Under the pieces are notes generated by a model, which did not search any database, was not told the DNA's origin, and was given only the letters and a program-made list of their open reading frames with translations. DNA of 64,000 nucleotides from IMG/VR virus record IMGVR_UViG_3300011969_000080; one strand, 5' to 3'. Source of the stretch: an uncultured virus (IMG/VR IMGVR_UViG_3300011969_000080). Taxonomy: Duplodnaviria > Heunggongvirae > Uroviricota > Caudoviricetes. The translations under genes and the position numbers were made by a program. Below are positions 1,554 to 63,079 of the stretch, one piece after another; the stretch's first letter is position 1, and the number at the start of each line of letters is the position of its first letter.

Positions 1554-1720
1554 CCGTTTCCGTAGGCACAGCTTCCGCCGTGCCGCTCCCCGTCCAGCCG
1601 AAGCTGGCGTAGGGGCCGCGTCGCTTCAGGAGACCAGGGTCCCCAGCGCAGCTGCACGCCACCCGAAGGTGGCCGATGTCTTACGGCTGCTTGCTTCGCC
1701 GGCGTCGCTCACGCCGCAAG
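1554..1720 (-). ncRNA. Putative omega-RNA scaffold / IS607-type right end of tnpB1
   Basis: Directly 3' of tnpB1: GTAAGAC, hairpin GCCACC-TTCG-GGTGGC, GAAGCG, CCCC..GACGGGGA, hairpin GGCACGGC-GGAA-GCTGTGCC, ending GGAAACGG, resembling actinobacterial IS607 ends. Confidence 0.6.
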
Positions 1721-3091
1721 AACAAGATCCCGCACCGTCGGCCCGGGCGGACTGCCCGAGCTTTCGGGTCGGGTCAGCCAGGCCCTGGCAAGGGCTGCCA
1801 GGTTCCGGGCTGCGTTCACATCACGGTCCAGGATCAGACCGCATTCCATGCAGTGGTACTCGCGCTCGGAAAGGGGCAGCTTGGCTTTCACTGCACCACA
1901 GTCCGAGCACGTCTTGCTGGATGGGTAGAACCGGTCGGCCCTGAATACGGCCGAACCGCGCTTGGCGGCTTGACGGGTCAGAATCTGCACAAACAGGCCA
2001 TACCCGTTGTCGCCGACGGACTTCCCGAACCGGTAGCCTTTCTTCCGGCGGGCCATCCCGCGCAGGCTCAGGGTCTCCACACCGACAACGTGGGCGTGCT
2101 CGGCGAGAGTGATGGCGAGGTGCTGCTGCCAGGTTTGCCGCTTGGATGCGGCCCGACCGTGCAGCTTCTGCACCCGGGCCAGTGCTTTCGCGTGCCGCCT
2201 GCTGCCAGGCGTGGTGCGTTGGAGCGCGCGCTGCGCAACGGCCAGGTCACCCAGCGCGCGGCGCAGGAACATGGGTGCGCCGATGTGGCCTACTTCGCCA
2301 GTCACGCCCGGCAGGGGCTTGTCGAGGGTGGCAAAGTGCCTGCCCATCCCGGCATCAACGCCTATGGCGTCGGCCCGTGGCGGTACACGGTGCCTGGTCG
2401 GCTGGGTTTTGGCGACGGGCAGGACCCGCATCTGCAAGGATGCCCACCAGTACCCGCCAGAGAACGAATACGCGACCTCCTGGACCTGGCCGCGCCCGTC
2501 CCGGATAAGCTTGGCGGCCCGCCGTCCGCGGTTGTCCTTCACGACTGGGACGCTCGAGAGCTGGACGGATCTGACGCGGCCGAGCCCGCGCCGCGCCGTG
2601 TTCGAGATTGGCAGCGCGAGCGCGCGGCCTCCGTCGGTGAGCCAGGCGGCGTCTTTCTCTTTGAAAGTGACCGGCACCAGGCCGGCGCCATCTCCGCGCT
2701 TCTTGCGGAACCGCGGGAACCGCGCCGACCCGGTCTTCCACTTCTTGAGCCCGTCAGCCAGCTGATGGGCTTGCCGATCCAGCACCAGGTACGGGACCTG
2801 CGCGTGCCAGGGCAGCCAGGCGCCCCGGTTCTCCCGGAGCAGCTCCTCCAGCCCGTACTTGTGCCACGACAGCGATGACGTGAGGTCCGCGTCGGGGATG
2901 CCGTAGGTCTTCTCCGCAGCCCGCTGGTCGAGGTTAGCTTTCACGTGGAACAGCAGAATGTTGTACGCGGCCCGTGCCGTGCCGCAGTACCCGGCAAGGA
3001 GCTCGACCTGAGCACGCGACGGGTTCAGGCGCAACTTCACTACCTGGGTCACGCCCTGGTCGGAACTGATGCGTGCGCGCGTGCTGTGCAT
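1709..3091 (-). CDS. tnpB: IS607-type TnpB RNA-guided endonuclease, intact, no adjacent TnpA
   Basis: N-terminal KLRLNP..GTARAAYN..KANLDQRAAEKTYG; RuvC motifs IGVDAG, VGVETL, DRDVNAARNL; Zn finger CSDC..CMEC. Confidence 0.92.
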   Translation of the reverse strand: MHSTRARISSDQGVTQVVKLRLNPSRAQVELLAGYCGTARAAYNILLFHVKANLDQRAAEKTYGIPDADLTSSLSWHKYGLEELLRENRGAWLPWHAQVPYLVLDRQAHQLADGLKKWKTGSARFPRFRKKRGDGAGLVPVTFKEKDAAWLTDGGRALALPISNTARRGLGRVRSVQLSSVPVVKDNRGRRAAKLIRDGRGQVQEVAYSFSGGYWWASLQMRVLPVAKTQPTRHRVPPRADAIGVDAGMGRHFATLDKPLPGVTGEVGHIGAPMFLRRALGDLAVAQRALQRTTPGSRRHAKALARVQKLHGRAASKRQTWQQHLAITLAEHAHVVGVETLSLRGMARRKKGYRFGKSVGDNGYGLFVQILTRQAAKRGSAVFRADRFYPSSKTCSDCGAVKAKLPLSEREYHCMECGLILDRDVNAARNLAALARAWLTRPESSGSPPGPTVRDLVLAA

Positions 3092-3761: not shown

Positions 3762-3877
3762 AAGGTCCCGTGCGCGGGAGGGTACAGATTCCCGGGATCA
3801 GTCAGCTGGCGCCCCACTGTGCAGCTCTACTGTGCAGTCCCGCCCGAGAGTGCAGAGTAGCTGGGGCGCCCGGGCAG

Positions 3878-4234
3878 CTAGGGGGTGCGTGTGGCGCGGG
3901 CCGCGGTGCGGGCGACATGAGCAGCGTGGCGCGGGCAGCCCACCGGCTGGCGGTCCGCCCGGGAAACATGCCGCAGGTACCACGCAGCGAACCCCACCCA
4001 CGACAGGACGAACACACCGTTCCCGGCGCGGGTGTCGGTGCGAAACGACCACCTGGTGAACGCGGACAGGGTGTCGTCGCTGGCGTGCTGGTGCAGGCTG
4101 TACGTTTCCATAGCGGCGCAGGTTGCCAGGGCGGCCACCCAGGCGATCCGCCACGGGGGCAGCTGGGCAGGCAGGGTTACGCTGGTGCGCGGACGCCGCG
4201 GCGATGCTGCCGTAGGGGCGAGGAGGGCGGTCAT
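3878..4234 (-). CDS. Small membrane protein
   Basis: ATG after GAGGAAG; two hydrophobic segments; promoter TTGCGT-N16-CACGGT at 4301-4274. Confidence 0.6.
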   Translation of the reverse strand: MTALLAPTAASPRRPRTSVTLPAQLPPWRIAWVAALATCAAMETYSLHQHASDDTLSAFTRWSFRTDTRAGNGVFVLSWVGFAAWYLRHVSRADRQPVGCPRHAAHVARTAARATRTP

Positions 4235-4390
4235 TCTTCTTCCTCACTGTGCTGGCGGTGTGTGACGCAGATCACCGTGGGCGCTACACCTCGCGACGCA
4301 AGGCCACTGCGGGATGCGGGATCTCGCGCAGGCGGGCACTGATTCCCGGGGTCAGTCAGCGGGGCGTGGCGGGCGGGTGCTACGCCAGGA

Positions 4391-4471
4391 TCGGCGGCAC
4401 GGCCCCGGCGGCCGTCACGTAATTGCAGGCGACGATGTGAACCTCCCCGCCCCTACGGGCGGGGCTTCTCG
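4391..4471 (-). ncRNA. IS605-type right-end hairpin and predicted guide of tnpB2
   Basis: Hairpin CCCCGCCCGTAGGGGCGGGG, then GGTTCAC (TTCAC at 4441-4437); same structure at 49751-49785, with divergence starting exactly after TTCAC. Confidence 0.8.
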
Positions 4472-5432
4472 TTAGACCGCGCGAGCGGCTTGGCGAAGGG
4501 CAGTTCCTGCCCTCAGAATGTTGATCGCGCCAACGACGTCGGCGTGACCGGTAAACCCACACAGCTGGCAGGTGAACACGGCCTGCGAGGGTCTGTTCGC
4601 TGCTTCGCAGTGCCCGCACTCGATGCAGGTGCGGGAGGTGTTGGCGGCCGGTACCGGAATGGTCTCGCGTCCAGCCTTTTCAGCTTTGGCGGTCAGCACA
4701 CTCAGGAACAACCCCCATCCCGCGTCCAGTATTGCTTTGTTCAGGCCCGACTTTGCGGCCTGACCGTTCGGTAGGTACTGGCCCGGGTTGTCGGGGTCCG
4801 GTTTGGGTTTCGCCCGCCGGGTCATGTTCCGGATCCGGAGCGCCTCATGGCAGATGACGTCGTGGTCCTGCACCAGTTTCAGAGCAGTCTTGTGGGCGTG
4901 GTCCAGGCGCTGCCGCCGGACCGTCCCGTGCAGGGCGGCAACTTTTTCGGCGGCCTTCCTGCGCCGGTTAGACCCGCGCTTGCGTCCGGAAAGCACCCGC
5001 TGGGCGGCGGCCAGTGTGGCCGCTGCGGACTTCCCAAACCTTGGGTTGGGCAGAAACTTCCCCTCGGAGGTGGTTGCAAACGACGCCACCCCCATGTCGA
5101 TGCCAGTGATCGCACCCGAGGGTGGCAGCGGCGTTGGGGCAACCTCGAGCGGGATTACCACAAACCAGCGGGTCCGCCGCCCGGACCCTTCACGCTTCAC
5201 CGTCACCGTTTTGGGGATGGCGCCCTCGGGCAGTGGTCGGTGCAGCCGAACCCGGACGTGGCCGACACCCATCACATACAGGCGCCTAGTCTCCGTATGG
5301 AGTTTGATCCCATTCCCGTGGCGGAAGTCCACACTGTCAAACCGGGCAGCGGCCCGAAACCTCGGGTACCCAGGCGCCTCCCCAGCTTTGACCCGACGGA
5401 AGAACGCCGCGAACGCCTTGTCCAGCCGGCGC

Positions 5433-6905
5433 CCCCCTCTATGATTTCGTTGTGATAACGGGAACACAGTTTGCAGCTGAACTGTTGACGAGTGTGGTTC
5501 CTGTTGTCGGCTGGAAGGGTTCAGCGTGCCGAGGTTGCCAGGCGGACCAGCGAAGAACCTGCCGCCATGCCCGAAGCCGGGGCACGCGCAGAGGCCGGTC
5601 GTCAAGGACGGCTCGTACGGGAAGCCGCCACGTCAGCTGTTCCGGTGCATCGGCGAGGTCGTCAACCAGAAGACGGGCGAGGTTCGCCAGTTCCACCGGT
5701 TCACGCCATCGCCGCCACGGCTGCTCCGGGAGTTCGCCGTGTGCGACAACTGCGACAACAAGGTTCGCCGCCACACCGGCCCGGTCAGCTCGCGCAGCTA
5801 CGCCTTCCCGGTTCGTGAGGTCGCCTCCGCGTTCGTCTCGGTCGGCACCGGCGCGTCCTACATGCAGGCAGCTGCCCGCGCTCGGGTCTCAGCCCACCGA
5901 CTCTTGGTTCGCAAGGACCAGGGCGGTGCCCTCGTAGCCGAGTGGCTCGACCTACTCGCACCCGTGGTTCTCGAGGCGTACGCGGAGGAAAGCTGGCCCG
6001 AGACGCTGGTGCTGGACAGCACGTGGTTCATGGCCGAGAACCCATGGACCCACACGCAGGAGCGGGCGTTCAGCGTCCTGGGCGCCTACGGCTACCCCGA
6101 CGGCGACGCTGCCGGCCGGCTGTGGGCGCTGCACGCGACGCACACCGCGGCACAGGCGGACTGGGAGACATTCCTGCGCGGTCTCGACCTCACCACACCA
6201 CCCAAGCTCGTCATCAGCGACGCCAACGCGTCCATCATCAACGCCGTGCGAGCCGTCTGGCCGGCCACCCCGGGGCCGAGCTTCCCCACGCCGTTCATCG
6301 CCCGCTGCGAGCTCCACCTTCACCGCAACGGGATGGAGCACATGGCCAAAGACCACATCGGCGGCTGGATGCACCCGCTGCGCAAGCGTCTGGGCTCCGC
6401 CTTCCTGCGCAGCGAGGGGTGGGACGAGCTGGTGGAGAAGGCCGACGGCTACATGCACACCGAGGCATGGCTGACCGACATCGCCGAGGTCCGGACCCAG
6501 GTTGCGGTGCGGCATCTGCTGCCCGCCCACCACTCGACCTCGGCGCTGGACCAGGCACTCGGCCGGGTCAGGGACTTCCTCTCCTCCCGCACCTTCGTCC
6601 TGCGCAACAAGCGACGCACCAACCTCGCGCTGGGTCTCATCCGCCTGCACCTCAACAGCGTTGACATCGAACGCAACTACGGGACGCGCCTGCGGGAGTA
6701 CCTCGATGCCCACGGTGGTGTTCTGCCCGCCCAGCGCTCCGGGAAGGACACCGGGGCAGGCCCGAGGACGGACCGCCAGCACCGGGTCCCAGCCTCGCTG
6801 CGCATCTGAGAACGCGGTCCGGCCCCCGACCACCCGGACGCATCCCTGCCCAGCCGAAATCGACCGTCAACCAGGGGACTTATCACAACGAAATCATAGA
6901 GGGGG
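5433..6905 (+). mobile_element. IS-A, 1473 bp, unclassified Mutator/IS256-like IS
   Basis: Perfect TIR CCCCCTCTATGATTTCGTTGTGATAA; 8-bp duplication GCCGGCGC at 5425-5432 and 6906-6913. Confidence 0.95.
5526..6809 (+). CDS. Transposase of IS-A
   Basis: Fills the TIR-bounded element; N-terminal Zn ribbon, VLDST, VISDA, CELH (CxxH), STSALDQ; homologous to 23590-24918. Confidence 0.88.
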   Translation: MPRLPGGPAKNLPPCPKPGHAQRPVVKDGSYGKPPRQLFRCIGEVVNQKTGEVRQFHRFTPSPPRLLREFAVCDNCDNKVRRHTGPVSSRSYAFPVREVASAFVSVGTGASYMQAAARARVSAHRLLVRKDQGGALVAEWLDLLAPVVLEAYAEESWPETLVLDSTWFMAENPWTHTQERAFSVLGAYGYPDGDAAGRLWALHATHTAAQADWETFLRGLDLTTPPKLVISDANASIINAVRAVWPATPGPSFPTPFIARCELHLHRNGMEHMAKDHIGGWMHPLRKRLGSAFLRSEGWDELVEKADGYMHTEAWLTDIAEVRTQVAVRHLLPAHHSTSALDQALGRVRDFLSSRTFVLRNKRRTNLALGLIRLHLNSVDIERNYGTRLREYLDAHGGVLPAQRSGKDTGAGPRTDRQHRVPASLRI

Positions 6906-7196
6906 GCCGGCGCAACGTCTGCTGTTGGGAGGTGAATGACCACGCGGCCTGGTCCGGGCGGGCCGCCCGGATCTCCTTGAGCTGCAGCATCTGTGACACC
7001 GCGCTGATCGACGTCCCGCGCATCCGCCAGGCGTCCCGCCGCTCCTGCAAACCTGCGTTGTACAGCTCGGCGTGCGCAGCACACATCGCCCCGAGAGCGT
7101 CACGCTGCTTGCTCGTTGGGTACAGCCGGAACTTGAACGCCCGCATCACGGTACTGACCGTGGGAGCCCGCCCCAAAACAGCAACGCGCCACCGGG

Positions 7197-8117
7197 CTAG
7201 GGCCCCACCTGGGCACGGAAGGGCCAGCTCGGCGGCACGGCCCCGGCGGCGGTGACGTAGTTGCAAGCGACGACGTGCTCCGCGCCCTGCGAGAACCTGT
7301 TTTTGATGTTCACCCCGTACCTGACCGGGTAAACGTGGACGATGAAGTCCCGATACAGCCCCTCGGTCAGCTCGGACTTGTCGATGACGACCATGAAGCT
7401 GGCGTGCTTGAGCGCGGCAAGACGGTCCCGGAGCTCGAGCTGCTCCTGGTCTCCGAAGGTCGCGCCGGCCGAGTACGTCTTCATGACCCTGGTGTACGGC
7501 GGGTCGACGTAGATGAACGTGTTCGGCTTGTCGTTGTCTTCGAGCACCCGGTCGTAGCTGCCCTGCCGGATGTCCGTTGTGGCGAGCAGCCCCGCGTGGG
7601 CTGAGCTGCGGAGGGCGGAGGCGTTGAGGGTCGTGTAGTGGCCGAACGGGACGTTGAACTCGCCGGCGGCGTTGAACCTGCGCATGCCCGAGAAGGCCAG
7701 CTGGTTGACGATGAAGAAGCGTGCGGCCCGCTGCCAGTCGGGGCAGCGTGCGAGGCCTCCCGCCCTGTCAAGGTTGCGGAAGTCGTAATACGCCTGGGCA
7801 CGCTGGTCGTGGGTGCCCCCGGGCCCAAACAGCGCGGAGACCGCGTCCACCGCGGTGAGAAACTGCGGGTCCTGCCGGGCGGCCACCCGGTAGAAATTGA
7901 TGAGCTCGCCGTCCCAGTCGTTGATGACGCTGTCCGGGTTCGCTAGGGACCAGTAGACCGCGCCCCCGCCGACGAACGGCTCCACGTACCTGTACCGCTC
8001 ACCGGCCGTGACAAAAGCCGGGTAGTGCGGGGAGAACCGCGCTATCTCGCGGCGCTTGCCGCCAGTCCATTTGAACAGCGGCGCGAGAGTGGCGGGGGCG
8101 GTCGGAGTCTTCGGCAC
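7197..8117 (-). CDS. dam: Dam-like (D12 class) DNA adenine methyltransferase
   Basis: KWTGGK, YVEPFVGGGAV, FNVPFG, YVDPPY; GTG start 8 nt after CACGGT. Confidence 0.9.
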   Translation of the reverse strand: MPKTPTAPATLAPLFKWTGGKRREIARFSPHYPAFVTAGERYRYVEPFVGGGAVYWSLANPDSVINDWDGELINFYRVAARQDPQFLTAVDAVSALFGPGGTHDQRAQAYYDFRNLDRAGGLARCPDWQRAARFFIVNQLAFSGMRRFNAAGEFNVPFGHYTTLNASALRSSAHAGLLATTDIRQGSYDRVLEDNDKPNTFIYVDPPYTRVMKTYSAGATFGDQEQLELRDRLAALKHASFMVVIDKSELTEGLYRDFIVHVYPVRYGVNIKNRFSQGAEHVVACNYVTAAGAVPPSWPFRAQVGP

Positions 8118-8518
8118 GCCCCGGGACCGTGGGTGCTCGGCCCGAAATGGCAACGCGCCGCCGGGCTAGAAGCCCCGGCTGAGCACGGGAGGGCCAGTGC
8201 GGCGTCACTGGCCCGCAAAAGATGGGGAGCACCGTGGGGTAATTGCATGATGCGCACGCGCCCCGTCTCGGGGTGACGGACGCCGCCCGCGCGCAGCTTG
8301 GCCCCCGGCCAGGCCCAGCGCAGGGCCGGAGGTTACCCCCACCCCCAGGCTCAGCCGCCTGAGCACCCGCGTCACACCCCTGCGCCCACGCGCCCGGGGA
8401 GTTCAGGCGCGGGCACCGCAGCGGCTGGGCCGGGGGCGGGGCACGACCACCTTGCCGGGCCAAGGCTCCGGACGAGGCGAACACCCACCCGTGTTCCGCC
8501 TACGCCCCGGAGAACCCC

Positions 8519-9583
8519 GTGCAGACCCTCTACGCCACCCGCCCTGTCGACCTCACCGACCCAGACGTAGGTCGGGGGCCGTGTGACCTCACCGCCCTGG
8601 TCGCCGACCTGCCGCTGTCCGACGTGGACGGCTGCCTGGAACTGCTCGAGGCCGAGCGCGTGCCCTTCCTGCGGCAGGAGGGTGCCGAACCCGGCAGCGC
8701 GAAGCGCAACCTCGACGCCGACTTCTACAGCGAGGTCAACGACCAGCTGTTCACCCGTCGGAAGGCCTTGCAGGCGCAGCTGGCCCGGCTCGCCGCTACC
8801 GCCGAGGCCGACATGGCGCCGCTACACAACCTCACCGTCCACCGCACCACCTGCGCGGTCGAGTCGATGACCGAGCTGGTCGTCCGGTTCAACTACGGCA
8901 TGACCCTCAACTACGTCCGGCGCTTCACGAACTGCGTCACCGACGAGAGCGCCGAGGACTTCCAGAGCGCAGCGCTCGTGGGCCTGATGGCCGCGGTCAA
9001 CAGCTTCGACCCGGGCAAAGGCCGGTTCGGCTCGTGGGCGTACAAGCGCATCCAACACGAGGTGCTGCGCGCCGTGCGCGACGCCGACTTCGCCAACATG
9101 AACCAGCACGACTTCGCGCGCCGCCCCGACATCCTGCGCGCCAGGGCCAAGCTCACAGCGGAGGGCGTAGTCCCCACCCATCCGCTGGTGGCTGAGGAGG
9201 CCGGCGTGTCCGCCGAGATGGTCACCCGTGTCCTGGACGCCCCGCGCATCGAGTCGATGAACGTCATCGTGGGCCTGCCCGGGTCGGACACCGAGCTCGG
9301 CGACCTCATCCCCGACTGCGGCCCGGCCGTAGACGCCCAGGTCCTTGCCGCGGCGGACGTGCCCACCCTGGTTGAGCACGGCCTGAACTCACTGGATGCC
9401 CGCGAGCTGTACGTCCTGGCCCGCCGGTTTGGACTGGACGGCGAACCCGCCCAGTGCCTGACCTCCATCGGGGCCCAGCTACACCTGTCCCGTGAGACGG
9501 TCCGCCAGATTGAGTGCCGGGCGATGTCACAGCTTCTGCACCCGGTAACGCTGAGCAAGCTGGCCCGCCAGGGCCCGGCGTAA
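8519..9583 (+). CDS. Divergent RpoD-like sigma-70 factor
   Basis: Region 2 EDFQSAALVGLMAAVNSFDPGKGRFGSWAYKRIQHEVLRAV; region 3.2 ELGDLIPD; region 4 LDARELYVLARRFGLDG..SRETVRQIECRAMSQLLHP. Confidence 0.92.
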   Translation: MQTLYATRPVDLTDPDVGRGPCDLTALVADLPLSDVDGCLELLEAERVPFLRQEGAEPGSAKRNLDADFYSEVNDQLFTRRKALQAQLARLAATAEADMAPLHNLTVHRTTCAVESMTELVVRFNYGMTLNYVRRFTNCVTDESAEDFQSAALVGLMAAVNSFDPGKGRFGSWAYKRIQHEVLRAVRDADFANMNQHDFARRPDILRARAKLTAEGVVPTHPLVAEEAGVSAEMVTRVLDAPRIESMNVIVGLPGSDTELGDLIPDCGPAVDAQVLAAADVPTLVEHGLNSLDARELYVLARRFGLDGEPAQCLTSIGAQLHLSRETVRQIECRAMSQLLHPVTLSKLARQGPA

Positions 9584-11393: not shown

Positions 11394-11724
11394 GGCGGGG
11401 ACCGTGGGGGCTGGGCCTAAAAGGGCACGGATCCGCTCCGCGGGCGAGCGCAGCACGAAGGGACGCTCGCGGTGAGCGTCCCTTCGGACAACCGGGCCTA
11501 TACCCGTAACACTGGTCAAATCGTCAAGGTGCGGTTCCCTGGGGTTCCGCGACGACGGGTGCCCAGCGGGGTGATAACCCCTACAGGTCCGCCGATACTG
11601 GCGGCCCCGCTGAACCCCCTTGGCGAGGCGGCACCCCCAACACACCGGCAGCTACCCGGCGGGCCAGTTCACGGCCTCGCTGATTACCACTGTGGGTGCT
11701 GCACGCGGCAGTGCAACCCCGGGC

Positions 11725-13496: not shown

Positions 13497-13571
13497 GCCA
13501 CTGACCGTGGGAGGCCGCCACGGCAACGCCAGCTTCCCGGTGGGGCCGCCCAGCTGCGCGGCCGAGTGGGG

Positions 13572-32745: not shown

Positions 32746-33633
32746 GTGAACGCCAAGCTTGCCGCCGCCCTAGACGACGCACGCGCCAAAGCCCTGAACG
32801 ACTTCGTCAAGGCCGCGACCAAGAAAGAAGCCGGGGCGGTGTTCACCTACAACACCAGGCCGGAGGCTGTGCCTGTCATCCGCACCGGTGCGCTCAGCCT
32901 GGACTTCGCCCTGGGCGTCGGCGGGATCCCCCGCGGCCGGGTCATAGAGCTATACGGACCCGAGTCATCGGGTAAGACGAGCCTTGCCTTATCTATCTGT
33001 GGGCAGGCCATCAAGGCCGGCGGCATGGTCGGCTTCGTTGACGTCGAGCACGCGCTGAACCCCAAGCACATGGAGGCGATGGGGTGCGACACGGCGTACG
33101 TCGCGATCGCCCAGCCGTCCTCGGGCGAAGACGCCCTGCAGATGGCCGAGACGATGGTGTCCTCAGGCCGCTTCGCGGTCGTCGTCGTGGACTCCGTGGC
33201 CGCGCTCGTCCCGCAGGCCGAGCTGGACGGGGAGATGTCCGACTTCTCAGTCGGCGCCCAGGCGCGGCTGATGTCCAAGGCGCTGCGCAAGCTGACCGGC
33301 CCATGCGCCCAGACCAACACCACGCTCATATTCATCAACCAGCTCCGGATGAAAATCGGAGTCCAGTTCGGGTCNNNNNNNNNNNNNNNNNNNNNNNNNN
33401 NNNNNNNNNNNNNNNNNNNNNNNNNNNNNNNNNNNNNNNNNNNNNNNNNNNNNNNNNNNNNNNNNNNNNNNNNNNNNNNNNNNNNNNNNNNGTACTCGGT
33501 GACCTCCACCGGTGAAGTCATCGCGCGTGGCAAGGACAACGCGATGGCCTACCTGTCGGAGAACCCGGTCCTGGCTGACGCGATCGCGGAAGAGTGCTAC
33601 GCGCTCCTGCTGGCCGACACCGTCGAGGCGTAG
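32746..33633 (+). CDS. recA: RecA recombinase, with a 117-N gap at 33375-33491
   Basis: [52 protein letters not shown]. Confidence 0.95.
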
Positions 33634-34505: not shown

Positions 34506-35076
34506 GTACCCTAGTCGGGGCGGGCAGGGTTCCGCTTGAGCAGCCGGGGCGTGGGCCAGCCGATGAGGCCGAGCTCATCGAACAGGGTTGCGGCCCCGCC
34601 GGGGGGCGCCACCGAGGCTGGTAGGTGTGGGCCGCCGGGTTTGTGTTCTGGCGCCGGGCCACAACAGTGTCCTGTGAGCTGGCGTGTGCTGGCACCCGAA
34701 GGAGCCCCACCATGGTCCAGCCCGAAGACCACGGCCCCGCAGGCCTGCTACGGCCATCCGCTGCTGTGCTCGCTGCTCGCACTGCCGAGCTGCACGAGAA
34801 CCGCGATCTCATCGAGGGTTCCCCCGAGCACCTTCTCGCCAGCCTTGCCGGCGTCACCGTCGAGGACCTGCGCCGCCTCGGCGGCATCTGACCCACCGGC
34901 GGCCGGTGCCGCCCTGCTGTGGGCCATTTTGGCAAAGTATGCAGTACGGGGTTGCCCTCAGCGTAGTAGCGCGCACGGTACCGAGCATGTCACCCACGAA
35001 AAAAGCGCCGCGAAGGCCGACAAGTGAGTGCCGTCTGGAGCTTGTCCCGGCCCCACCAGCACCCACGGTGGCTGCC

Positions 35077-41990: not shown

Positions 41991-42096
41991 GCGCCTGCGG
42001 GGCCTGCTAACTCCGCAGAGCTGCCGACCGGCGCCCCGTACTCCGGGGCGGGCCCAGCCCCTCGGGCTAAAGGGCCCGGCGCCCACGGTGGGAGGC

Positions 42097-46123: not shown

Positions 46124-46456
46124 GGACCCTGCGCGCCCCTCCATGATCTGACTGTGGTAGATCCGGGCCTGGTGCCGCCGAAGGCGTTGTGGGCCAGGGG
46201 ATCGGCTGTCCCCGGCTCGCCGGTTGTCGCACCGAAACCGTAGAGGGGCCCGCCGGGGTGTGTCCGAACGAGGACGTAGCAGGCACGCCTGCGAGCTGTT
46301 ACCCCCGGCTCGGGGCAACTGATAACTCAGAGTTAGCAGTTCGACCACGCGTGGGGGCACACACCTGGGTAGTTGGGGAGCACGGGGCGCGCCCTCCCAC
46401 AAACCAGGCAGCTGCAAGCCCTTGTGCCCGGCGAGTGTGCGCGCAAGGTCAAGTAC

Positions 46457-49332: not shown

Positions 49333-49705
49333 GCGCCGGGCCCCAATCTCCAACAATGCCGCCGCGGGCACCCACGGTCCCTGCTACTGGCGGCCCACGC
49401 CGCCAGCAGGAAGGCGGCACCGTGCTCGGCGCACGCAGGGGTCCCCCGGCGGCGGCGGACCCCGCCCCCGTGCAGCGCAATGCTCTGCGGGCCGGGGCAG
49501 CGGCAGCCAGGCGGGTGCGCGACGGCGCGGACGAGGGGGCGTTGGCGGTGTGGTGTGACGACGGCGGCCGGGACGTGCGCGAGTCTCCCGAGCCCCACGG
49601 CGCCACCGGGGAGACACCTAACGCCTGGTTCTTCCTGTACTGGGCGTAGCTGCTACGCGACGTGGCGGCGGGCCGGCGGCTTGCACAGCGTGGTCACGGC
49701 GGGCC

Positions 49706-49785
49706 GCGTACTTGGCCGCGAGGGCGGCCATCTGGGTCCTCTCGTACTGCGTGAACCTCCCCACCCGTACGGGTGGGGCTCCTCG
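49706..49785 (-). ncRNA. IS605-type right-end hairpin and predicted guide of tnpB3
   Basis: CCCCACCCGTACGGGTGGGG hairpin, then GGTTCAC (TTCAC at 49755-49751). Confidence 0.8.
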
Positions 49786-51104
49786 TTAGGCCGCGTGAGC
49801 GGTTTGGCGAAGGGCAGTTCCTGCCCTCAAAATGTTTATCGCGCCAACAACGTCGGCGTGACCTGTGAACCCACACCGCTGGCAGGTGAACACGGCCTGA
49901 GATGGCCTGTTCGCTGCTTCGCAGTGCCCGCACTCAACGCAGGTGCGGGAAGTGTTGGCGGCCGGTACCGGAACAGTCTCGCGTCCAGCCTTTTCAGCTT
50001 TGGCGGTCAACACACTCAGGAACAACCCCCATCCCGCGTCTAGTATGGCTTTGTTCAGGCCCGACTTCGCGGCCTGACCGTTCGGCAGGTACTGCCCCGG
50101 GTTGTCCGGATCCGGCCTGGGCTTAGCGCGCTTGGTCATGTTCCGGATCCGCAGGGATTCGTGGCAGATGACGTCGTGGTCTTGCACGAGTTTCAGGGCA
50201 GTTTTGTGAGCGTGGTCCAGGCGCCGTAACCGGATGGTCCGGTGTATCGCAGCGACCCTCTCGGCGGCTTTCCTGCGCCGGGCAGACCCGCGCTTGCGAC
50301 CAGACAGCACCCTTTGGGCGGCGGCCAGCTTGACCGCAGCGGCCTTCCCGAACCGCGGGTTGGGCAGGAACTTGCCCTCAGAGGTAGTTGCAAACGACGC
50401 CACACCCATGTCAATGCCCGTGATCGCGCCTGAGGGCGGCAATGGTGCCGGGGCCACCACGAGCGGGATGACCACAAACCAGCGGGCCCGCCGCCCCCCT
50501 CTATGATTTCGTTGTGATAACTGGGGCCGCGCAGCACGTAGATCCCTTGTGGCACAAGCCTTTCGCCAGGCCGGCGGCCGGATCTATCACAGTCAGATCA
50601 TGGAGGGGGCCGCCGCCCCGACCCCTCGCGCTTCACGCTGACCTGGCCCAGGGCGGCTCCCTCAGGCAGCGCCCGGTGGGGCCGAACCCGGACGTGGCCG
50701 ACGCCCATCACGTACAGACGCCTGCTCTCCGGGCGGAACTTGATCCCGTTCCCGTGGCGGAAGTCCACGCTGCCAAACCGGGCTGCGGCGCGGAACCTTG
50801 GATACCCCGGCGTCTCCCCGGCCTTTACCCGGCGGAAGAATGCCGCGAATGCCTTGTCCAGTCGGCGCAACGTCTGCTGCTGCGATGTGGCCGACCACAC
50901 CCCCTGGTCCGGGCGGGCCACCCGGATCTCCTTGAGCTGCAGCATCTGCGACGCCGAGCTGATTGACTTCCCACACACCCGCCAAGCGTCCCGCCGTTCC
51001 TGCAAGGCGGCGTTGTACAGCTCGGCGTGTGCCACGCACATCTGCCCGAGAGCGTCACGCTGCTTGCTCGTCGGGTACAGCCGAAACTTGAACGTCCGCA
51101 TCAC
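49786..51104 (-). pseudogene. tnpB: tnpB3, close paralog of tnpB2, interrupted by a 115-bp MITE
   Basis: Removing 122 bp restores a 1197-nt ORF (KREGSGRRARWFVV); RuvC D/E/D intact. Confidence 0.93.
50495..50609. mobile_element. MITE-A, carrying the IS-A TIR
   Basis: Left end identical to the IS-A TIR; variant right TIR; TSD CCGCCGC. Confidence 0.9.
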
Positions 51105-51596: not shown

Positions 51597-53510
51597 TTAG
51601 GCGGCGTGGCGGCGACGAGCCAGCGGCTTGCGCAGCGCGGTCACGGCGGGCAGCTTGTCCCCGGGCCGGCGGGCGTCACCCAGCAGGCTGAGCCAGTCAC
51701 GCAGGTGAAGCTGGGCAGCCACGTCGTCCTCGTTATAGCACCGAAGGCGCTCGATGTTCGCGGCGGCTACCTGGGGGTTGTTGCTGGCCGCGGCGCGGTA
51801 CCAGACCATGGACTGGTCCCCGCCGGGGGTGTTGTCCCGCCAGGAGAACCGCGCCCACTTCGCGAGCGACTTGATCGAGTGGCTCTGGGTGGGCCACACG
51901 AGCTGCTTGTGCAGCACCTCGTACAGGTCCACAACCATGTCGGAGCCGAAGAACTCGTGAACCTCGCCGACGGTGGGAACCCCGCGGCCACCGGCGTACT
52001 TACCGGCCAGGGCGACCATCTGGGTCCGCTCGTACGCCGTGTAGTGATAAAAGCAGATGGAGTGTCCACCCTTTGCGGCTTTGGTGATCATCCGCTGGAA
52101 GTACCGCCACGTTTTGACGAACACGGCCCGCTCGCCGCCCGGGGTGGCGGTGTAGTTGTCGAACGTGTTCATTTCGGTGCGCTCGCGACCGGAGCGGCGA
52201 CCCGTCTGCTTGCGGCCGGTGGCCAGGACACCCCACATGTACACGAGGTTCTCGGAGCTTCCGGCGGCGGTCGCGTTCTCGCAGTCAAAGTCGATCTCGA
52301 TGTCTGCACGGGGCAGGTCCACGAACTCGACGCCCGCGTTCCGGGCGACCTTGCCAGCGGCAAACACCCGCGCCTGACGAATGTGCTTGACGTCGGTGAG
52401 GTCTGCGCCGCGAACGTCCATGCGGGCCAGGCTGCGAATGTCGGTGATACCGCGGCGGTAGAAGGGCTGCGCGGCTGTCGGCGTGACGCCGGGGAGGAGG
52501 GTGATGTGGCCGCCGTCGCCGTAGGTGCGGAGCTCCTCGGCGCACACGGTGCGCCACGGGCACTCGGCGCACGCGGTCTTCTTCTCGGGGAGCACGATGG
52601 ACGCGACGGTCGGGTCCAGGTTGCGCACGACGGCGTTGTCCACGACGGCCATTGCACGGGCGAAGTTCGCGTCGTACAGCTCGAGGGCCGTGTGGGCGGC
52701 AACCGGGCCGCCGTCAGTCAGCGCCTTGCGGAACATCTTCGCGTCCAGGCGGGCCCAAACGAGCTTCTCCTCCTTGCCGATGACCGCACCCCAGGGGGAG
52801 AGGCCGTTGTCTACCACGCCGAGGCTTTCGCCGTGCCGGTAGTAGTGGGACAGCTGCATCCAGTCTTCCAGGTGCAGCGCGCCGGTGAACTCCTCGCTGT
52901 CACCGTAGGGGTCGTAAGGGCCGGCGAAGTCGGACACGGGGGCGGACTTTGGACGGACTGTTTTGCCGCTGAACGTTTTGTGCCACTTGACGTCCACGAA
53001 GGACATTGAGCGCAGGCCGTTGGCCATAACCGGTCCGAACACGATTGCGTCCGGCTCGCTGATCCGGTCGGTGTCAGAAACGTCCGCGCCCAGGTGCGCC
53101 GAGAGCAGCGCCTCAAACACAGACCCGATGCGTGCGTTGAAGATCATCGCGACACCCGGGTTGAGCCAGGCTGCGAAGGTTGCCGCCTCCTTGGCGGCTT
53201 TGCCTTCCGCGGTGCGCTCCCCGGTCTCGTCGCGAGCCTCCACGATGGAGACCACGGTGCCCGGTGTGGCAGCGGCGACGATGTCCAGGCCGATCTTCGT
53301 CTCAAACAGGTTGCCGGAGTTCATCAGGTCCGCGGTGAACGCGGACGGGTCGTCCCGCAGTGTCACCGGGTACAGGTTTGGGCTGTGGTCCTTGCTGAGC
53401 GCCTCCGGGCAGGTCTTGGCTGCGTACCCACCAAGGCGCGAACGCTGTGGCGCGGTTACTGCCACCGGGGTGCTCGGCGGGGTCTGGCAGGAAATCGAGG
53501 AAGTGTTCAT
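51597..53510 (-). CDS. TM0106-like nuclease: PD-(D/E)xK/Cas4-like domain plus RNase H-like (YprB) domain
   Basis: EPD..VDVKWH..QLSHY..CAECPWRTVC; IDFDCE..FYHYTAYE..VDLY..SIKSLA..YNEDDV. Confidence 0.85.
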   Translation of the reverse strand: MNTSSISCQTPPSTPVAVTAPQRSRLGGYAAKTCPEALSKDHSPNLYPVTLRDDPSAFTADLMNSGNLFETKIGLDIVAAATPGTVVSIVEARDETGERTAEGKAAKEAATFAAWLNPGVAMIFNARIGSVFEALLSAHLGADVSDTDRISEPDAIVFGPVMANGLRSMSFVDVKWHKTFSGKTVRPKSAPVSDFAGPYDPYGDSEEFTGALHLEDWMQLSHYYRHGESLGVVDNGLSPWGAVIGKEEKLVWARLDAKMFRKALTDGGPVAAHTALELYDANFARAMAVVDNAVVRNLDPTVASIVLPEKKTACAECPWRTVCAEELRTYGDGGHITLLPGVTPTAAQPFYRRGITDIRSLARMDVRGADLTDVKHIRQARVFAAGKVARNAGVEFVDLPRADIEIDFDCENATAAGSSENLVYMWGVLATGRKQTGRRSGRERTEMNTFDNYTATPGGERAVFVKTWRYFQRMITKAAKGGHSICFYHYTAYERTQMVALAGKYAGGRGVPTVGEVHEFFGSDMVVDLYEVLHKQLVWPTQSHSIKSLAKWARFSWRDNTPGGDQSMVWYRAAASNNPQVAAANIERLRCYNEDDVAAQLHLRDWLSLLGDARRPGDKLPAVTALRKPLARRRHAA

Positions 53511-53561
53511 GTACAGCACAGTGCGCGCTGTGCGGAAATCACAAGGGGGCGCCGGGGCCTA

Positions 53562-58981: not shown

Positions 58982-59089
58982 TCCGCGGGCGCCTACGCCG
59001 CCGCACCCCTGTTGGGTTTGACACGCCGCCCACCACGGTCCCACCAGACAGGCCACCCTGGCCCGCACCCCCGCACCCTGGAGCTCCAA

Positions 59090-60628
59090 GTGGCACGTTC
59101 GGTAGGCATTGACCTCGGTACCACCAACTCGGTAGTTGCCGTCCTCGAGGGTGGGCAGCCCACCATCATTGCCAACGCCGAGGGCGGGCGCACGACGCCA
59201 TCCGTTGTTGCGTTCTCCAAGGACGGCGAGGTGTTCGTCGGCGAGGTCGCCAAGCGGCAGGCCGTCACCAACGTTGACCGGACGATCCGCTCGGTCAAAC
59301 GGCAGATCGGCACCAACTGGACCCAGAAGATTGACGGCAAGACGTACACCGCCCAGGAGATCAGCGCCCGCATCCTGCAGAAGCTCAAGCGTGACGCGGA
59401 AGCGTACCTGGGCGAGGACGTCACAGACGCCGTGATCACGGTCCCGGCGTACTTCGATGACGCTGAGCGCCAGGCGACCAAGGAGGCCGGTGAGATCGCG
59501 GGCCTGAACGTCCTGCGCATCATCAACGAGCCCACCGCTGCGGCGCTCGCCTACGGCCTGGACAAGGGCAAGGAGGACGAGCTCATCCTCGTCTTCGACC
59601 TCGGCGGTGGCACCTTCGACGTCTCGCTGCTCGAGGTCGGCAAGGACCCCGACGACGGCTTCTCCACCATCCAGGTCCGCGCGACCAACGGCGACAACCG
59701 GCTGGGCGGCGACGACTGGGACGACCGCATCGTCGAGCACCTGGTGGCCTGCGTGAAGAACGCACACGGCATCGACCTGACGGGCGACAAGATCGCCATG
59801 CAGCGTCTGCACGACGCCGCGGAGCAGGCAAAGAAGGAACTGTCCGCGGTGTCGAGCACCAACATCAGCCTGCCCTACCTTTCCATGACCGCAAACGGGC
59901 CAGTCCTCCTGGACGAGACCCTGACCCGCGGGCACTTCGAGCAGCTCACCGCAGACCTGCTCGAGCGCGTCAAGGAGCCGTTCCGCCAGGTCATCCAGGA
60001 CGCCGGCATCGGCCTCGCGGACATTGACCACGTCGTGCTTGTCGGCGGGTCCACCCGGATGCCCGCCGTCGTGACAGTGGTCACCGAGCTCACCGGCGGG
60101 AAGGCCCCCAACAAGGGTGTCAACCCCGACGAGGTTGTTGCTCTCGGCGCCACCCTGCAGGCGGGCGTCCTCAACGGCGAGCGCGAAGACGTCCTCCTGA
60201 TCGACGTGACGCCAATGTCCCTGGGCATCGCCATCGCCCATGGCAGCGTACGGGACCGGATGAGCAAGATCATCGAACGCAACACGGCCATCCCGACCAA
60301 GCGCTCGGAGGTGTACACCACGTCGGAGAACAACCAGACCTCGGTCCTCATTCAGGTATTCCAGGGGGAGGACGAGACCGCCAGCCGCAACACCGGCCTG
60401 GGCACCTTCGAGCTCGACGGCATCGCGCCGGCCCCCACGGGCGTGCCCCAGATCGAGGTCACCTTCACCATCGACGCCAACGGCATCGTCCACGTGTCCG
60501 CCAAGGACCTGGCCACCGGCCGGGAGCAGCACATCACCATCTCGGGCGGCTCGGCAACGCCGGGGCACGAGCTGGCGCGCATGGTCCGCGAAGCCGCAAG
60601 CGGCACCGTTGACCGCTGGAACGGGTGA
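59090..60628 (+). CDS. dnaK: Hsp70 chaperone DnaK, C-terminally truncated (512 aa)
   Basis: [46 protein letters not shown]. Confidence 0.95.
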
Positions 60629-61358
60629 CGGCGCCGTGGGTACGCCGTGGTCCCGGTTCCTCGATGCCCCCCGTGGGACCATCGGGCGGGCCCTAGACGA
60701 CCTGGCGGCCGCTGCCGCTGAGACGCCCACTGAGGATCTGACAAGCGCGACGCCCGCAGAAGACGCCCTGGCCATCGAGACTCCACCCGCGGGCGCAACC
60801 AGCGCTGAGCCGGTGGAAGACGCCCCGCCGTGTCCCGACCTGGCCGAGGAGATCACCGTCGAGGCCCCCTGTGAAGAAGAGGGCCCGGGGGAGTACGTCG
60901 AGGCCGCCCACCCAGACACCACCCGCGCCGGCGAGCTGGCCCGCAAGCTGGAAAGGGAGCTGGAAAGGGAGCGCGCCGAGTACGCCAACTACAAGCTGCG
61001 GGTGGACCGCGACCGCGACCTGCAGCGCGACCTGGCGGTTAGCGGCGTGTTCCAGTCGGCGCTACTGCCCGTGCTGGACGACATCCACCTGGCGCGCCAA
61101 CATGGCGACCTCACGGACGGTCCCGGTGGTGCCATCGCTGCCAAGTTCGAGGGACTGGTTGACCGCCTTGGCCTTCGGCAGTTTGGGCAGGCCGGCGACG
61201 TGTTCGACCCGCGAATCCATGAGGCGCTCATGCACACCCCGGCCGCAGACCCCGGCGCCCCCTCAGTGACCACAGTCGTGCAGGTGCTGCAGCCCGGCTA
61301 CCTGATGGGCGAGCGGGTCATCCGCGCTGCCCGCGTCGCCGTGGCGGACCTGCCGTAA
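60609..61358 (+). CDS. grpE: Nucleotide exchange factor GrpE (start uncertain)
   Basis: [37 protein letters not shown]. Confidence 0.93.
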
Positions 61359-61385
61359 CACCCCACCCAGAGAGGGGCGACAACG

Positions 61386-62285
61386 ATGGCCAGCCAGGAC
61401 TTCTACACGATCCTCGGCGTCCCCCACGACGTCACAGGGGACGGCGTCAAGAAGGCGTACCGCCAACTCGCCCGCAAACTGCACCCCGACCACAACCCCG
61501 GGGACGCCGCGGCTGAAAAACGGTTCAAGGAGATCAGCGCGGCGTACGCCACCCTGTCCCGCCCCGAGGCGCGCAAGGCGTACGATGCCGCGCGTCAGGC
61601 GCCAGCACCCTTGCCCTACACCGCCGACCCCGTGTTTGACGACGTATTCAGCAGCCTGTTTGGCGGGCGCGCCCCCCGGTATGGGAACCTAGAAGACCTG
61701 CTTAGCGGCCCACCCCGGCGTGTCGGCCCTCGTCCAGGCGCCGACGTGCAGGCGCACGTCACGCTGCCCTTCCGCGACGCGGTTGAGGGCGCAACGGTGA
61801 CGCTGAGCACCGAGGACGGCGCCAGAATCACCGCGCGCATCCCGGCCGGCGTCAAGAACAGCCAGAAGATCAGGCTCCGCGGTAAGGGCGACCCCGGCGA
61901 ACGGGGCGGCCCGGCCGGCGACCTCCTGCTCACCGTGAAGGTGGCCACACATCCAGTGTTTGGCCGCACCGGCAACAGCCTGACCGTTGACCTGCCGGTC
62001 ACCTTTGCCGAAGCCTGCCTGGGGGCAACGGTGCGGGTGCCCGTGCTGTCTGGTGCCCCCGTCAGCGTCAGGATCGCCGCCGGGACAGCGGGCGGGCAGG
62101 TACTGCGCGTCAAGGGCCGGGGTGTTGTCACCGGTGAGCGCACAGGCGACCTGCTGGTCCGGGTGCGCGTGGTGGTCCCCCGGCAGCTGTCTGACAAAGC
62201 CCGCGAGGCGCTCGGGGTGCTGCGTGCTGAGGACGCTGCCACAGACCCCCGCGCAGACGTATTTGCGCACGCCACAGAGCGCTGA
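61386..62285 (+). CDS. dnaJ: DnaJ co-chaperone (no zinc finger)
   Basis: J domain with HPD; C-terminal domain IPAGV..IRLRGKG..GDLL. Confidence 0.92.
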   Translation: MASQDFYTILGVPHDVTGDGVKKAYRQLARKLHPDHNPGDAAAEKRFKEISAAYATLSRPEARKAYDAARQAPAPLPYTADPVFDDVFSSLFGGRAPRYGNLEDLLSGPPRRVGPRPGADVQAHVTLPFRDAVEGATVTLSTEDGARITARIPAGVKNSQKIRLRGKGDPGERGGPAGDLLLTVKVATHPVFGRTGNSLTVDLPVTFAEACLGATVRVPVLSGAPVSVRIAAGTAGGQVLRVKGRGVVTGERTGDLLVRVRVVVPRQLSDKAREALGVLRAEDAATDPRADVFAHATER

Positions 62286-62329
62286 CCAGCCCGCTTGCGT
62301 TATCCCCGTCAGCCCCCACAGTGAAGGTC

Positions 62330-63079
62330 ATGAACCGCACACCGCTAACCACTGAGTTCCTGACCACCCGCTACGTTCGGGACGGCGCCACCTTCGGCGA
62401 GCTCGCCGCCGAGACCGGCTGGTCCTCCACCAAGATCCGCAACGCCATGCACGACGCCGAGCTGCCCATCCGCCCGCGGGGTGGCGTGACCCTTTCTGGG
62501 GCCCTCACCGCGGACTACCTCGCCCAGCGGTACACGACCGACGCCGCCAGCGTCGTCGACATCGCCGCGGAGACCGGCCTCTCCGCCGCCACTGTCCTGC
62601 GAGCCATGCGCCGCGGCCGTGTGGCCACTGACGTCGCCCACCGGCGCGGGTCGCGGTACGCCAGCGTCCTCACTCGGGACTTCCTCATCGGGCTGTACAT
62701 GTTCGATGGGTCATCCGCTGCTGCGATCGCGTCAGAGGTTGGCTGCTCCACCCAGACCGTCCTGACGGCCCTGCGCAACCACGGGCTCACCGTCCGGGTC
62801 CAGAAGGCCCCGCCGATCGCCCGCGAGCAGCTGCTCGACCTGTACATCACCCAGGGCCACGCCGCCGGCTTCGTCGCGAACGCCCTCGGCGTCTCCCGCG
62901 GCACGCTCAACGCGGCCCTCATTCGCGAGCACCTGCCCACCCCGCGGCAGATGCGCCAGGCCCTGGGTGACACCGGGCTGACCGTTGCCGCGGCGTACCA
63001 GGCGCTGGCCACCTACGTCCCCACGGACGAGCCGGGCACCTGCGTGCTCGCCGCGGCGTGGGCCCTCGCAGCCCGGTAA
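62330..63079 (+). CDS. Protein with four tandem HTH repeats
   Basis: Repeated L...Y......IA.E.G.S...V. Confidence 0.75.
   Translation: MNRTPLTTEFLTTRYVRDGATFGELAAETGWSSTKIRNAMHDAELPIRPRGGVTLSGALTADYLAQRYTTDAASVVDIAAETGLSAATVLRAMRRGRVATDVAHRRGSRYASVLTRDFLIGLYMFDGSSAAAIASEVGCSTQTVLTALRNHGLTVRVQKAPPIAREQLLDLYITQGHAAGFVANALGVSRGTLNAALIREHLPTPRQMRQALGDTGLTVAAAYQALATYVPTDEPGTCVLAAAWALAAR

Follow-up and report, generated by a model that had tools for sequence, protein, structure and literature searches.

TnpB is the ancestor of Cas12 and its gene is among the commonest in prokaryotes, and to our knowledge the persistence of so many tnpB copies without a transposase is still unexplained. Here we describe two tnpB-omegaRNA cassettes in the IMG/VR record IMGVR_UViG_3300011969_000080, a stretch of 64,000 nt (as a whole, the window) from an uncultured high-GC soil replicon. 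Both cassettes directly follow a gene that is intact, one encoding a DNA adenine methyltransferase (dam) and the other a RecB-like nuclease, and each right end (...GGAGGTTCAC) is joined to a decaying, displaced copy of the 3' part of that gene. Since a TnpB guide is read from the roughly 16 nt 3' of the right end, the guide of each cassette is predicted to be a near copy of a site in the neighboring gene.

Some integrating elements bring along a new 3' end that replaces the one of their target gene, as phage 21 and e14 do in icd and as occurs in tRNA-gene integration. The loci described here resemble such cases in that the gene is intact with a new 3' end, the old end persists as a pseudogene fragment beyond the insert, and the differences are mainly silent, and they differ in having no integrase and in that the replacement end lies outside the DNA common to the two cassettes. 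In synthetic cleave-and-rescue (ClvR) drives, the guide targets the common allele of some useful gene, and a linked, recoded copy of that gene escapes it. The logic of the window layout would be the same, except that here the layout is natural, its origin was probably accidental, and the nuclease genes are now broken.

In the IS200/IS605 element ISDra2, the TnpB guide is reported to be about 16 nt of flank and the target-adjacent motif (TAM) to equal the TnpA target (PMC8612924), and double mismatches at guide positions 1 to 12 are reported to abolish cleavage (PMC10097598). Like ISDra2-type elements, the window cassettes encode HTH_OrfB_IS605, OrfB_IS605, and zinc ribbon domains with a RuvC triad (ISDra2 TnpB provides the closest solved structures to the C-terminal part of copy 1, E 8e-27), carry an omegaRNA that overlaps the 3' end of the gene, have a sharply conserved right end, and would have their guides read from the flank. 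Unlike those elements, they show no tnpA and no recognizable left end or TAM, and so are akin to the tnpB-only "IS1341" group; their flank is a displaced 3' part of the neighbor and not an arbitrary target, with a near-target 0.1 to 0.9 kb upstream at two loci.

A 2026 review of OMEGA homing treats TnpB homing as restorative or non-restorative, both told by transposon presence or absence, and in its portion on substitution-based "intronless" homing ascribes that mode to protein endonucleases only (PMC13565253). In the window cassettes, substitutions would discriminate in place of transposon presence or absence. SegF, SegB, and Mob are free-standing phage endonucleases that serve intronless homing and marker exclusion. 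The cassettes resemble such endonucleases in placing a nuclease gene beside a conserved gene, with the target predicted in that gene and a few substitutions in the resident allele (PMC13565253). They would differ in the means of recognition, an RNA guide derived from a gene remnant in place of a protein.

Cassette 1 and the displaced 3' end of dam

The features of this locus, all read on the minus strand unless stated, are as follows.
7197..8117, minus strand: dam, a D12-class N6-adenine DNA methyltransferase gene encoding 306 amino acids (PF02086, E 1.4e-35; TIGR00571, E 4.6e-48)
7229..7274, minus strand: resident near-target inside dam, preceded directly by AGCAC, 41/46 nt against the cassette 1 flank
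7170..7228, minus strand: end of dam without counterpart in the flank copy, comprising SWPFRAQVGP, the stop codon (7199-7197), and 27 nt with a TTGC -35-like box
6907..7169, minus strand: left part of cassette 1, made up of the N-terminal part of tnpB as far as the target duplication of an insertion sequence (IS), with 23 nt (GGGCTCCCACGGTCAGTACCGTG) ahead of the start; PF12323
4472..5431, minus strand: C-terminal part of tnpB copy 1, 318 amino acids with RuvC D/E/D and zinc ribbon; PF01385, PF07282
4437..4650, minus strand: omegaRNA scaffold and right end of cassette 1, ending ...GGGGCGGGGAGGTTCAC and overlapping the 3' end of the gene
4380..4436, minus strand: displaced dam 3' end (IVACNYVTAAGAVPPILA, then stop), the first ~16 nt being the predicted guide of cassette 1; tblastn E 7e-6
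8125..8262, minus strand: remnant A, a decayed third dam tail with a downstream promoter-like stretch, immediately before the dam start

The right end of cassette 1 runs ...GGGGCGGGGAGGTTCAC (last nucleotide 4437) and is followed by ATCGTCGCCTGCAATTACGTGACGGCCGCCGGGGCCGTGCCGCCGA (4436-4391) and then by TCCTGGCGTAG, with a stop codon at 4382-4380. The first-pass annotation had pointed out that the stretch after TTCAC repeats dam 7274-7229, and both direct reading and shuffles bear this out: 41 of 46 nt are identical, with mismatches at guide positions 1, 9, 15, 21, and 24. When an 18-nt guide was searched with up to three mismatches, it matched only itself and dam (expected, 0.02; two matches in 0 of 100 shuffles), and the local alignment of the flank with dam scored 81, against a shuffle mean of 19.8 and a maximum of 32. 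Read in the dam frame, four mismatches are third-codon-position changes and one is ATC/GTC, in keeping with the four synonymous changes and one I/V exchange described earlier, and the remnant does continue in frame to its own stop (ILA, then stop). The description of the flank as a "recoded" copy stands only in part. The changes fall mostly at third positions (probability of at least four of five, 0.045 under random placement), but this is only suggestive and would weaken further if some of them arose in the constrained resident copy. The "recoded" dam tail is outside the DNA common to the cassettes.

The tail of the flank copy (...AGAVPPILA, then stop) resembles the tails of dam homologues, which are of the type PPxL (VPPVL, TPPFL, and VPPSL), and the resident tail (...AGAVPPSWPFRAQVGP, then stop) is present in none of 27 aligned homologues. 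Judged by this tail, the cassette 1 flank is a genuine dam 3' end with a family-typical tail. Within the 46-nt repeat the final 22 nt are identical and no likeness continues past them, an abrupt stop that looks more like a recombination breakpoint than like decay. The stretch at 7170-7228 is common to remnant A and not to cassette 2. Remnant A repeats the resident tail, the spacer, and the promoter-like stretch in decayed form, aligning from 8214 to 8125 with 7243-7156 (score, 91; shuffle maximum, 29; tblastn of 8250-8173, E 0.03). This suggests that a dam paralogue once stood in tandem and has since lost its body. An older right end upstream of remnant A was considered and dropped, as no likeness to the omegaRNA region was visible by eye. 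An extended similarity between the right end and dam (GGGCGGGGAGGTTCAC against GGGCGCGGAG-CAC) was taken as chance because it is absent at copy 2.

The two possible starts of tnpB copy 1 (GTG at 7149 and ATG at 7146) lie fifty nt past the dam stop. The left part of the cassette has 86% nucleotide identity to 51124-50863, and the two pieces of the gene are contiguous in three relatives (L001 to L003). Profile matches of the C-terminal part include NF040570 (E 2.4e-63) and favor IS200_TnpB (151 bits) over IS607_TnpB (93.5 bits), both scores being under their curated "exception" cutoffs. The RuvC residues had been called intact, and the motifs GIDMG, CHEAL, and HADV are indeed present, align with those of a TnpB-like chain, and are kept in copy 2.

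The position of the guide depends on the right end, which had been placed correctly at 4437. The sequence ...GGAGG(A)(G/T)TCAC followed by unrelated flanks occurs in both window copies, in three IMG/VR loci, and in all 14 copies on a Streptomyces plasmid, and four independent lines support the boundary: the paralogous copy within the window; the three IMG/VR relatives, two of which are near-identical to one another; a 57%-identical IS605 element in one Streptomyces plasmid, whose 14 copies all end ...GGAGGAGTCAC, at most 3 nt from the end of homology; and a loose contig end in source run X1. Loose ends at 4437 and 4433 in that run indicate that the sample contains two or more additional right-end flanks. 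When four right ends are folded together, the consensus has 55 pairs, 9 of them with compensatory changes. In a scan against Rfam no family reached threshold, and the best match ("Transposase-2 RNA," E 0.13) lies beside a third tnpB described below.

Past the dam remnant there is a 38-nt direct repeat (84%; CCCGGGAAT core) at 3772-3809 and 4326-4363, just beyond two successive stops, those of the remnant and of ORF 3878-4234 (ORF, open reading frame). A role as a terminator-like element or as an intergenic repeat is possible.

Cassette 2 and the RecB-like nuclease gene

A tblastn search of the window with the pieces of tnpB returned a paralogous cassette with its own neighbor.
51597..53519, minus strand: resident RecB-like nuclease gene (TM0106 family) upstream of cassette 2; TIGR03491, E 1.7e-40; PF13482
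49751..51124, minus strand: cassette 2, paralogous tnpB and omegaRNA, 87% nucleotide identity to cassette 1
49627..49750, minus strand: cassette 2 flank, displaced pieces of the gene upstream of cassette 2

Homology between the cassettes spans 7169-4437 and 51124-49751, and the flanks are unrelated on either side (the left-flank score was reached by 356 of 500 shuffles and the right-flank score by 50 of 500). The flank of cassette 2 (GCAGTACGAGAGGACC...) matches its own neighbor in two pieces. From 49750 to 49706 it aligns with 52038-51994 of the RecB-like gene at 37 of 45 nt (E 3e-10), and the 81 nt at 49707-49627 align with 51654-51571, which hold the last codons of the gene, its stop, and 25 nt past the stop (E 1.7e-13). 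About 340 nt of the gene are missing between the pieces, and since this gap breaks the frame, the remnant is a pseudogene. The stop codon of the gene is retained in the flank remnants of both copies. In the first piece of the cassette 2 flank there are eight differences, and half of them alter the encoded amino acid.

The resident near-target (52038-51994) is preceded directly by TACAC and mismatches the guide at positions 2, 3, and 11; for the 18-mer guide of cassette 2, two matches occurred in 0 of 100 shuffles. At both loci the resident stretch thus follows CAC (AGCAC and TACAC), as the guides follow TTCAC of the right end, and each guide has 3 mismatches in 16 to its resident site, with two or three of these within the first 12 positions. 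One layout at two loci with different neighbor genes argues that the arrangement is systematic and not chance. Cassette 2 is separated from the RecB-like gene by 470 nt, which were inspected outside the Pfam scan and showed no convincing ORF and no visible tnpA remnant. A search of IMG/VR for the RecB-like gene returned none.

State of the nucleases and their surroundings

Both tnpB copies are interrupted, and a third tnpB of a different type lies nearby.
5432..6906, plus strand: IS256-like IS of 1,475 nt with perfect 27- to 28-nt inverted ends; target site duplication CCGGCG (5426-5431 and 6907-6912)
50494-50609: miniature inverted-repeat transposable element (MITE) of 116 nt in tnpB copy 2; target site duplication CGGCGG; shifts the frame
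1709-3091, minus strand: third tnpB, open frame of 460 amino acids, best as IS607-type (NF038280, 194 bits, below cutoff)

The IS breaks tnpB copy 1 after codon 80. The 1,197-nt tnpB of the first-pass annotation exists as an open 398-codon frame only when 1,481 nt are omitted (joint 5426>6908), and the IS that splits it had gone unmentioned. The ORF of the IS encodes 427 amino acids (5526-6809), has no Pfam match, and matches the IS256 model NF033543 weakly (E 3.6e-4, far under cutoff). Contigs about 99% identical to the IS with other flanks occur in soil and peat metagenome runs X4, X5, and X8 of other studies, which marks it as a currently mobile element of soil bacteria. The right inverted end of the MITE is identical to that of the IS and its left end is a diverged version, so that both tnpB paralogues were struck by one IS family at GC-rich 6-nt targets. 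A second MITE copy of ~115 nt lies at 46136-46249 and is intergenic.

Neither copy has an uninterrupted frame, and the IS and the MITE are their sole defects: copy 2 is open for 398 codons without the MITE and one target site duplication. The restored copies, 398 codons each without a stop, have the same residue at 350 of 398 positions, with a dS of 0.52 and a dN/dS of 0.13. This ratio and the open restored frames indicate that selection kept acting on the copies well past their divergence and that their inactivation by the one IS family is recent. With both frames interrupted, any present activity would need TnpB from another copy. A candidate is P0123 of the protein collection, an intact 398-amino-acid TnpB paralogue that is 90% identical to the C-terminal and 85% identical to the N-terminal part of copy 1. 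It is recorded on three contigs, the longest of 133,593 nt, which is also the size of the longest dam-bearing contig; P0123 is probably on the same replicon, outside the window.

The absence of tnpA noted earlier agrees with the Pfam scan, in which no Y1 transposase (PF01797), resolvase, or serine recombinase was found among the ORFs scanned (most of the 64 that a GC3 filter picked from the 341 window ORFs of at least 80 amino acids). Relatives at 51 to 57% identity are complete IS605 elements with tnpA, and the window cassettes are therefore a tnpB-only form. With no intact ORF, no tnpA, and no definable left end, they stand as stranded forms. One such relative was seen on the Mycolicibacterium plasmid pCBMA213_1 (L075, 1094-3700), a complete IS605 element whose TnpB is 53% identical and which adjoins a convergent DNA adenine methylase gene; this adjacency may be coincidence. 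The third tnpB was examined for the same layout, and its one match, 18 nt to ORF 4234 (E 0.03), was judged chance; the weak "Transposase-2 RNA" match (1561-1627, E 0.13) lies 3' of it.

Upstream of their start codons the two cassettes share just 23 nt. Homology that begins there leaves the resident dam tail and its 27-nt spacer outside the shared element DNA. Across the window there are 22 occurrences of the motif CCCACGGT, where 6.2 would be expected. In 10 of the 22, an ATG or GTG stands 6 to 8 nt (mostly 7) downstream and begins an ORF of 60 codons or more; the GTG start of dam, for example, lies 8 nt past one. A TTGnC box often stands ~18 nt upstream. Example sites are 7157-7164, 8126-8133, 11401-11408, and 13504-13511 on the minus strand and 35062-35069 and 42082-42089 on the plus strand. 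This placement suggests that CCCACGGT is the -10 portion of a promoter that is specific to the replicon and drives leaderless genes; the product of the sigma factor gene at 8519-9583 may recognize it.

The window holds mostly ORFans and also encodes, besides that sigma factor, a DnaB-like helicase, two methyltransferases, and dnaK-grpE-dnaJ. The dnaK-grpE-dnaJ cluster, followed by a multi-HTH protein (58982-63079), stands amid ORFans, and a run of 117 N occurs at 33375-33491. Of 12 ORFs scanned against PHROGs, only dam and the helicase had matches. A DNA search with the dam region gave no match to phage DNA, a degenerate dam-tail pattern gave 0 matches in IMG/VR, and no DNA relative was found in five DNA collections. 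Searches of IMG/VR, GTDB genomes, and JGI metagenomes with the protein encoded by dam gave relatives of at most 57% identity, none of which adjoins tnpB; in the collections searched, including the protein collection, there was none above 65% amino acid identity. Run X4 contains low-depth dam-like pieces (7560-8349), the dam tail not being covered by the contigs examined, and what runs X4, X5, and X8 hold is mostly the IS256-like element and short pieces.

Origin and possible activity of the cassettes

We lean, with no great confidence, toward the following account of both loci: two old, paralogous, transposase-less IS200/IS605 tnpB-omegaRNA cassettes were joined at a CAC within genes whose integrity a second 3' end preserved, so that the displaced end came to supply the guide. 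The right end would once have been joined at a CAC site within the neighbor gene, and the gene would have stayed or again become functional as a second 3' copy, derived from a paralogue or a related replicon, came between the gene body and the cassette. At dam, a tandem paralogue with another tail would have been present when the right end joined the CAC of dam, and the intact 3' end and promoter would then have been copied from that paralogue into the space between gene body and cassette. Remnant A indicates that a dam tail of that kind existed in tandem. A cassette so placed has the ingredients of a homing element, with its guide directed at the un-rearranged allele, a resident allele that mismatches this guide, and homology to either side. 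By analogy with ISDra2, cutting would be expected at an un-rearranged allele and not at the resident sites, provided that CAC or its counterpart there serves as TAM. The cassettes might then, we infer, cleave, home, or exclude competitors, and the drive proposed by the first-pass annotation is plausible but unproven.

Several observations weigh against our account of the two loci. No left-end hairpin or TAM could be defined when the two cassettes were compared, and a comparison of L001 to L003 gave no clear left end either; the 5' flanks of the cassettes, GGGGC and GCAGG, have no common motif, and because the shared 23 nt contain CCCACGGT, the left limit of the cassettes is indistinguishable from a generic promoter. 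In the 57%-identical Streptomyces relatives, CAT stands directly 5' of the left end in eight of nine copies, so that CAC at the window loci may be microhomology and not a TAM, and a literature search for a CAC-type TAM turned up only primers and one unrelated motif. Among the homologous tnpB loci compared, the layout is clear only in the second window cassette: in L001 it is weak (19 of 500 shuffles reach the score, and the upstream match may be the element's own left end), in L002 and L003 it is not significant (351 of 500), and in L004 to L008 a guide from a neighbor gene was not found. No intermediate documents how the second 3' end was placed, a step that we infer, and no paralogue of the RecB-like gene occurs in the window, leaving no visible donor for copy 2. 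Finally, the guides mismatch their resident sites no more often than the divergence of the repeats (11 to 18%) predicts, which leaves no separate sign of selected escape.

A stronger claim is that this layout was selected, with TnpB cutting an un-rearranged dam or RecB-like allele in co-resident relatives in the manner of RNA-guided "intronless" homing or cleave-and-rescue; we regard it as rather doubtful. It gains from the occurrence of one layout beside different neighbor genes, from tnpB having long been under purifying selection without tnpA, and from the intact paralogue P0123, which is probably on the same contig. The resident mismatches fall within guide positions 1 to 12 (1 and 9; 2, 3, and 11), where double mismatches are reported to abolish cutting by ISDra2 TnpB (PMC10097598), all five differences of copy 1 lie in the first 24 of 46 nt [C(24,5)/C(46,5) = 0.03], and the copy 2 remnant keeps the guide-proximal part and has lost 340 nt behind it. 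Spread of IS605 among plasmid copies without TnpA is also among the work that the OMEGA review cites (PMC13565253). However, both nuclease genes are interrupted, the TAM may not be CAC, the mismatch count equals that expected from overall divergence, and the window scans give no demonstration of a phage or multicopy element. Searches of IMG/VR, GTDB genomes, JGI metagenomes, INPHARED phages, and the protein collection (>65% identity) turned up no relative of the replicon and hence no allele that could be cut. What such cutting would lead to, either repair that co-converts the cassette together with the substituted, resistant 3' end or destruction of the rival replicon, can be put forward only tentatively. 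It is likewise on the improbable side that the solo cassettes act, or acted until the IS silenced them, as intronless homing or cleave-and-rescue elements whose guide is a retained 3' fragment of the neighbor.

Two further explanations deserve less weight. The 3' end of the neighbor might have traveled as cargo at the left end of a transposon. A unit that begins at the CAC inside the gene and reaches as far as the right-end CAC would then have moved whole into the homologous CAC of another allele. Such a unit would be bounded by CAC on the left at both loci (7275 and 52039) and by ...TTCAC on the right, would leave the gene intact, and would account for a copy 1 flank that differs from the resident mostly at silent positions, as alleles would. 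We nonetheless think it quite unlikely. Nothing is common to the cassettes upstream of 7169 and 51124, so that each cassette would have had to acquire its cargo separately, a piece of 105 nt at one locus and of 914 nt at the other, and remnant A has the same dam tail and spacer without a cassette behind it. Cleavage of an IS200/IS605 left end requires a left-end hairpin nearby; neither such a hairpin nor a tnpA was found. That the whole pattern is an assembly artefact or accidental similarity seems very improbable to us. The tnpB copies are 87 to 90% alike, Logan contigs break inside them, and no 100%-identical contig among those listed covers 4692-4811, so an assembler could have joined the flank to the wrong copy; yet contigs of the source run span 3900-4512, crossing the junction at 4437, and 4812-8500, and a misjoin fails to explain why, at two loci, each flank matches the gene beside its own cassette. 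The shuffles exclude chance similarity.

The window thus presents two transposase-less tnpB copies, both under past purifying selection, whose guides both point to a near-copy site in the adjacent intact gene. If the account of their activity is true, TnpB would spread without TnpA or a left end, and self would be told from non-self by substitutions. Such a layout, if it works, would let TnpB spread or exclude competitors by recombination alone, as phage free-standing homing endonucleases do, and would be the natural equivalent of cleave-and-rescue drives made by engineering. Should the layout not work, the locus would nonetheless record insertion into a useful gene that was tolerated via a duplicated 3' end, and it would mean that a near-self guide can be a by-product, a caution against reading intent into guide matches.

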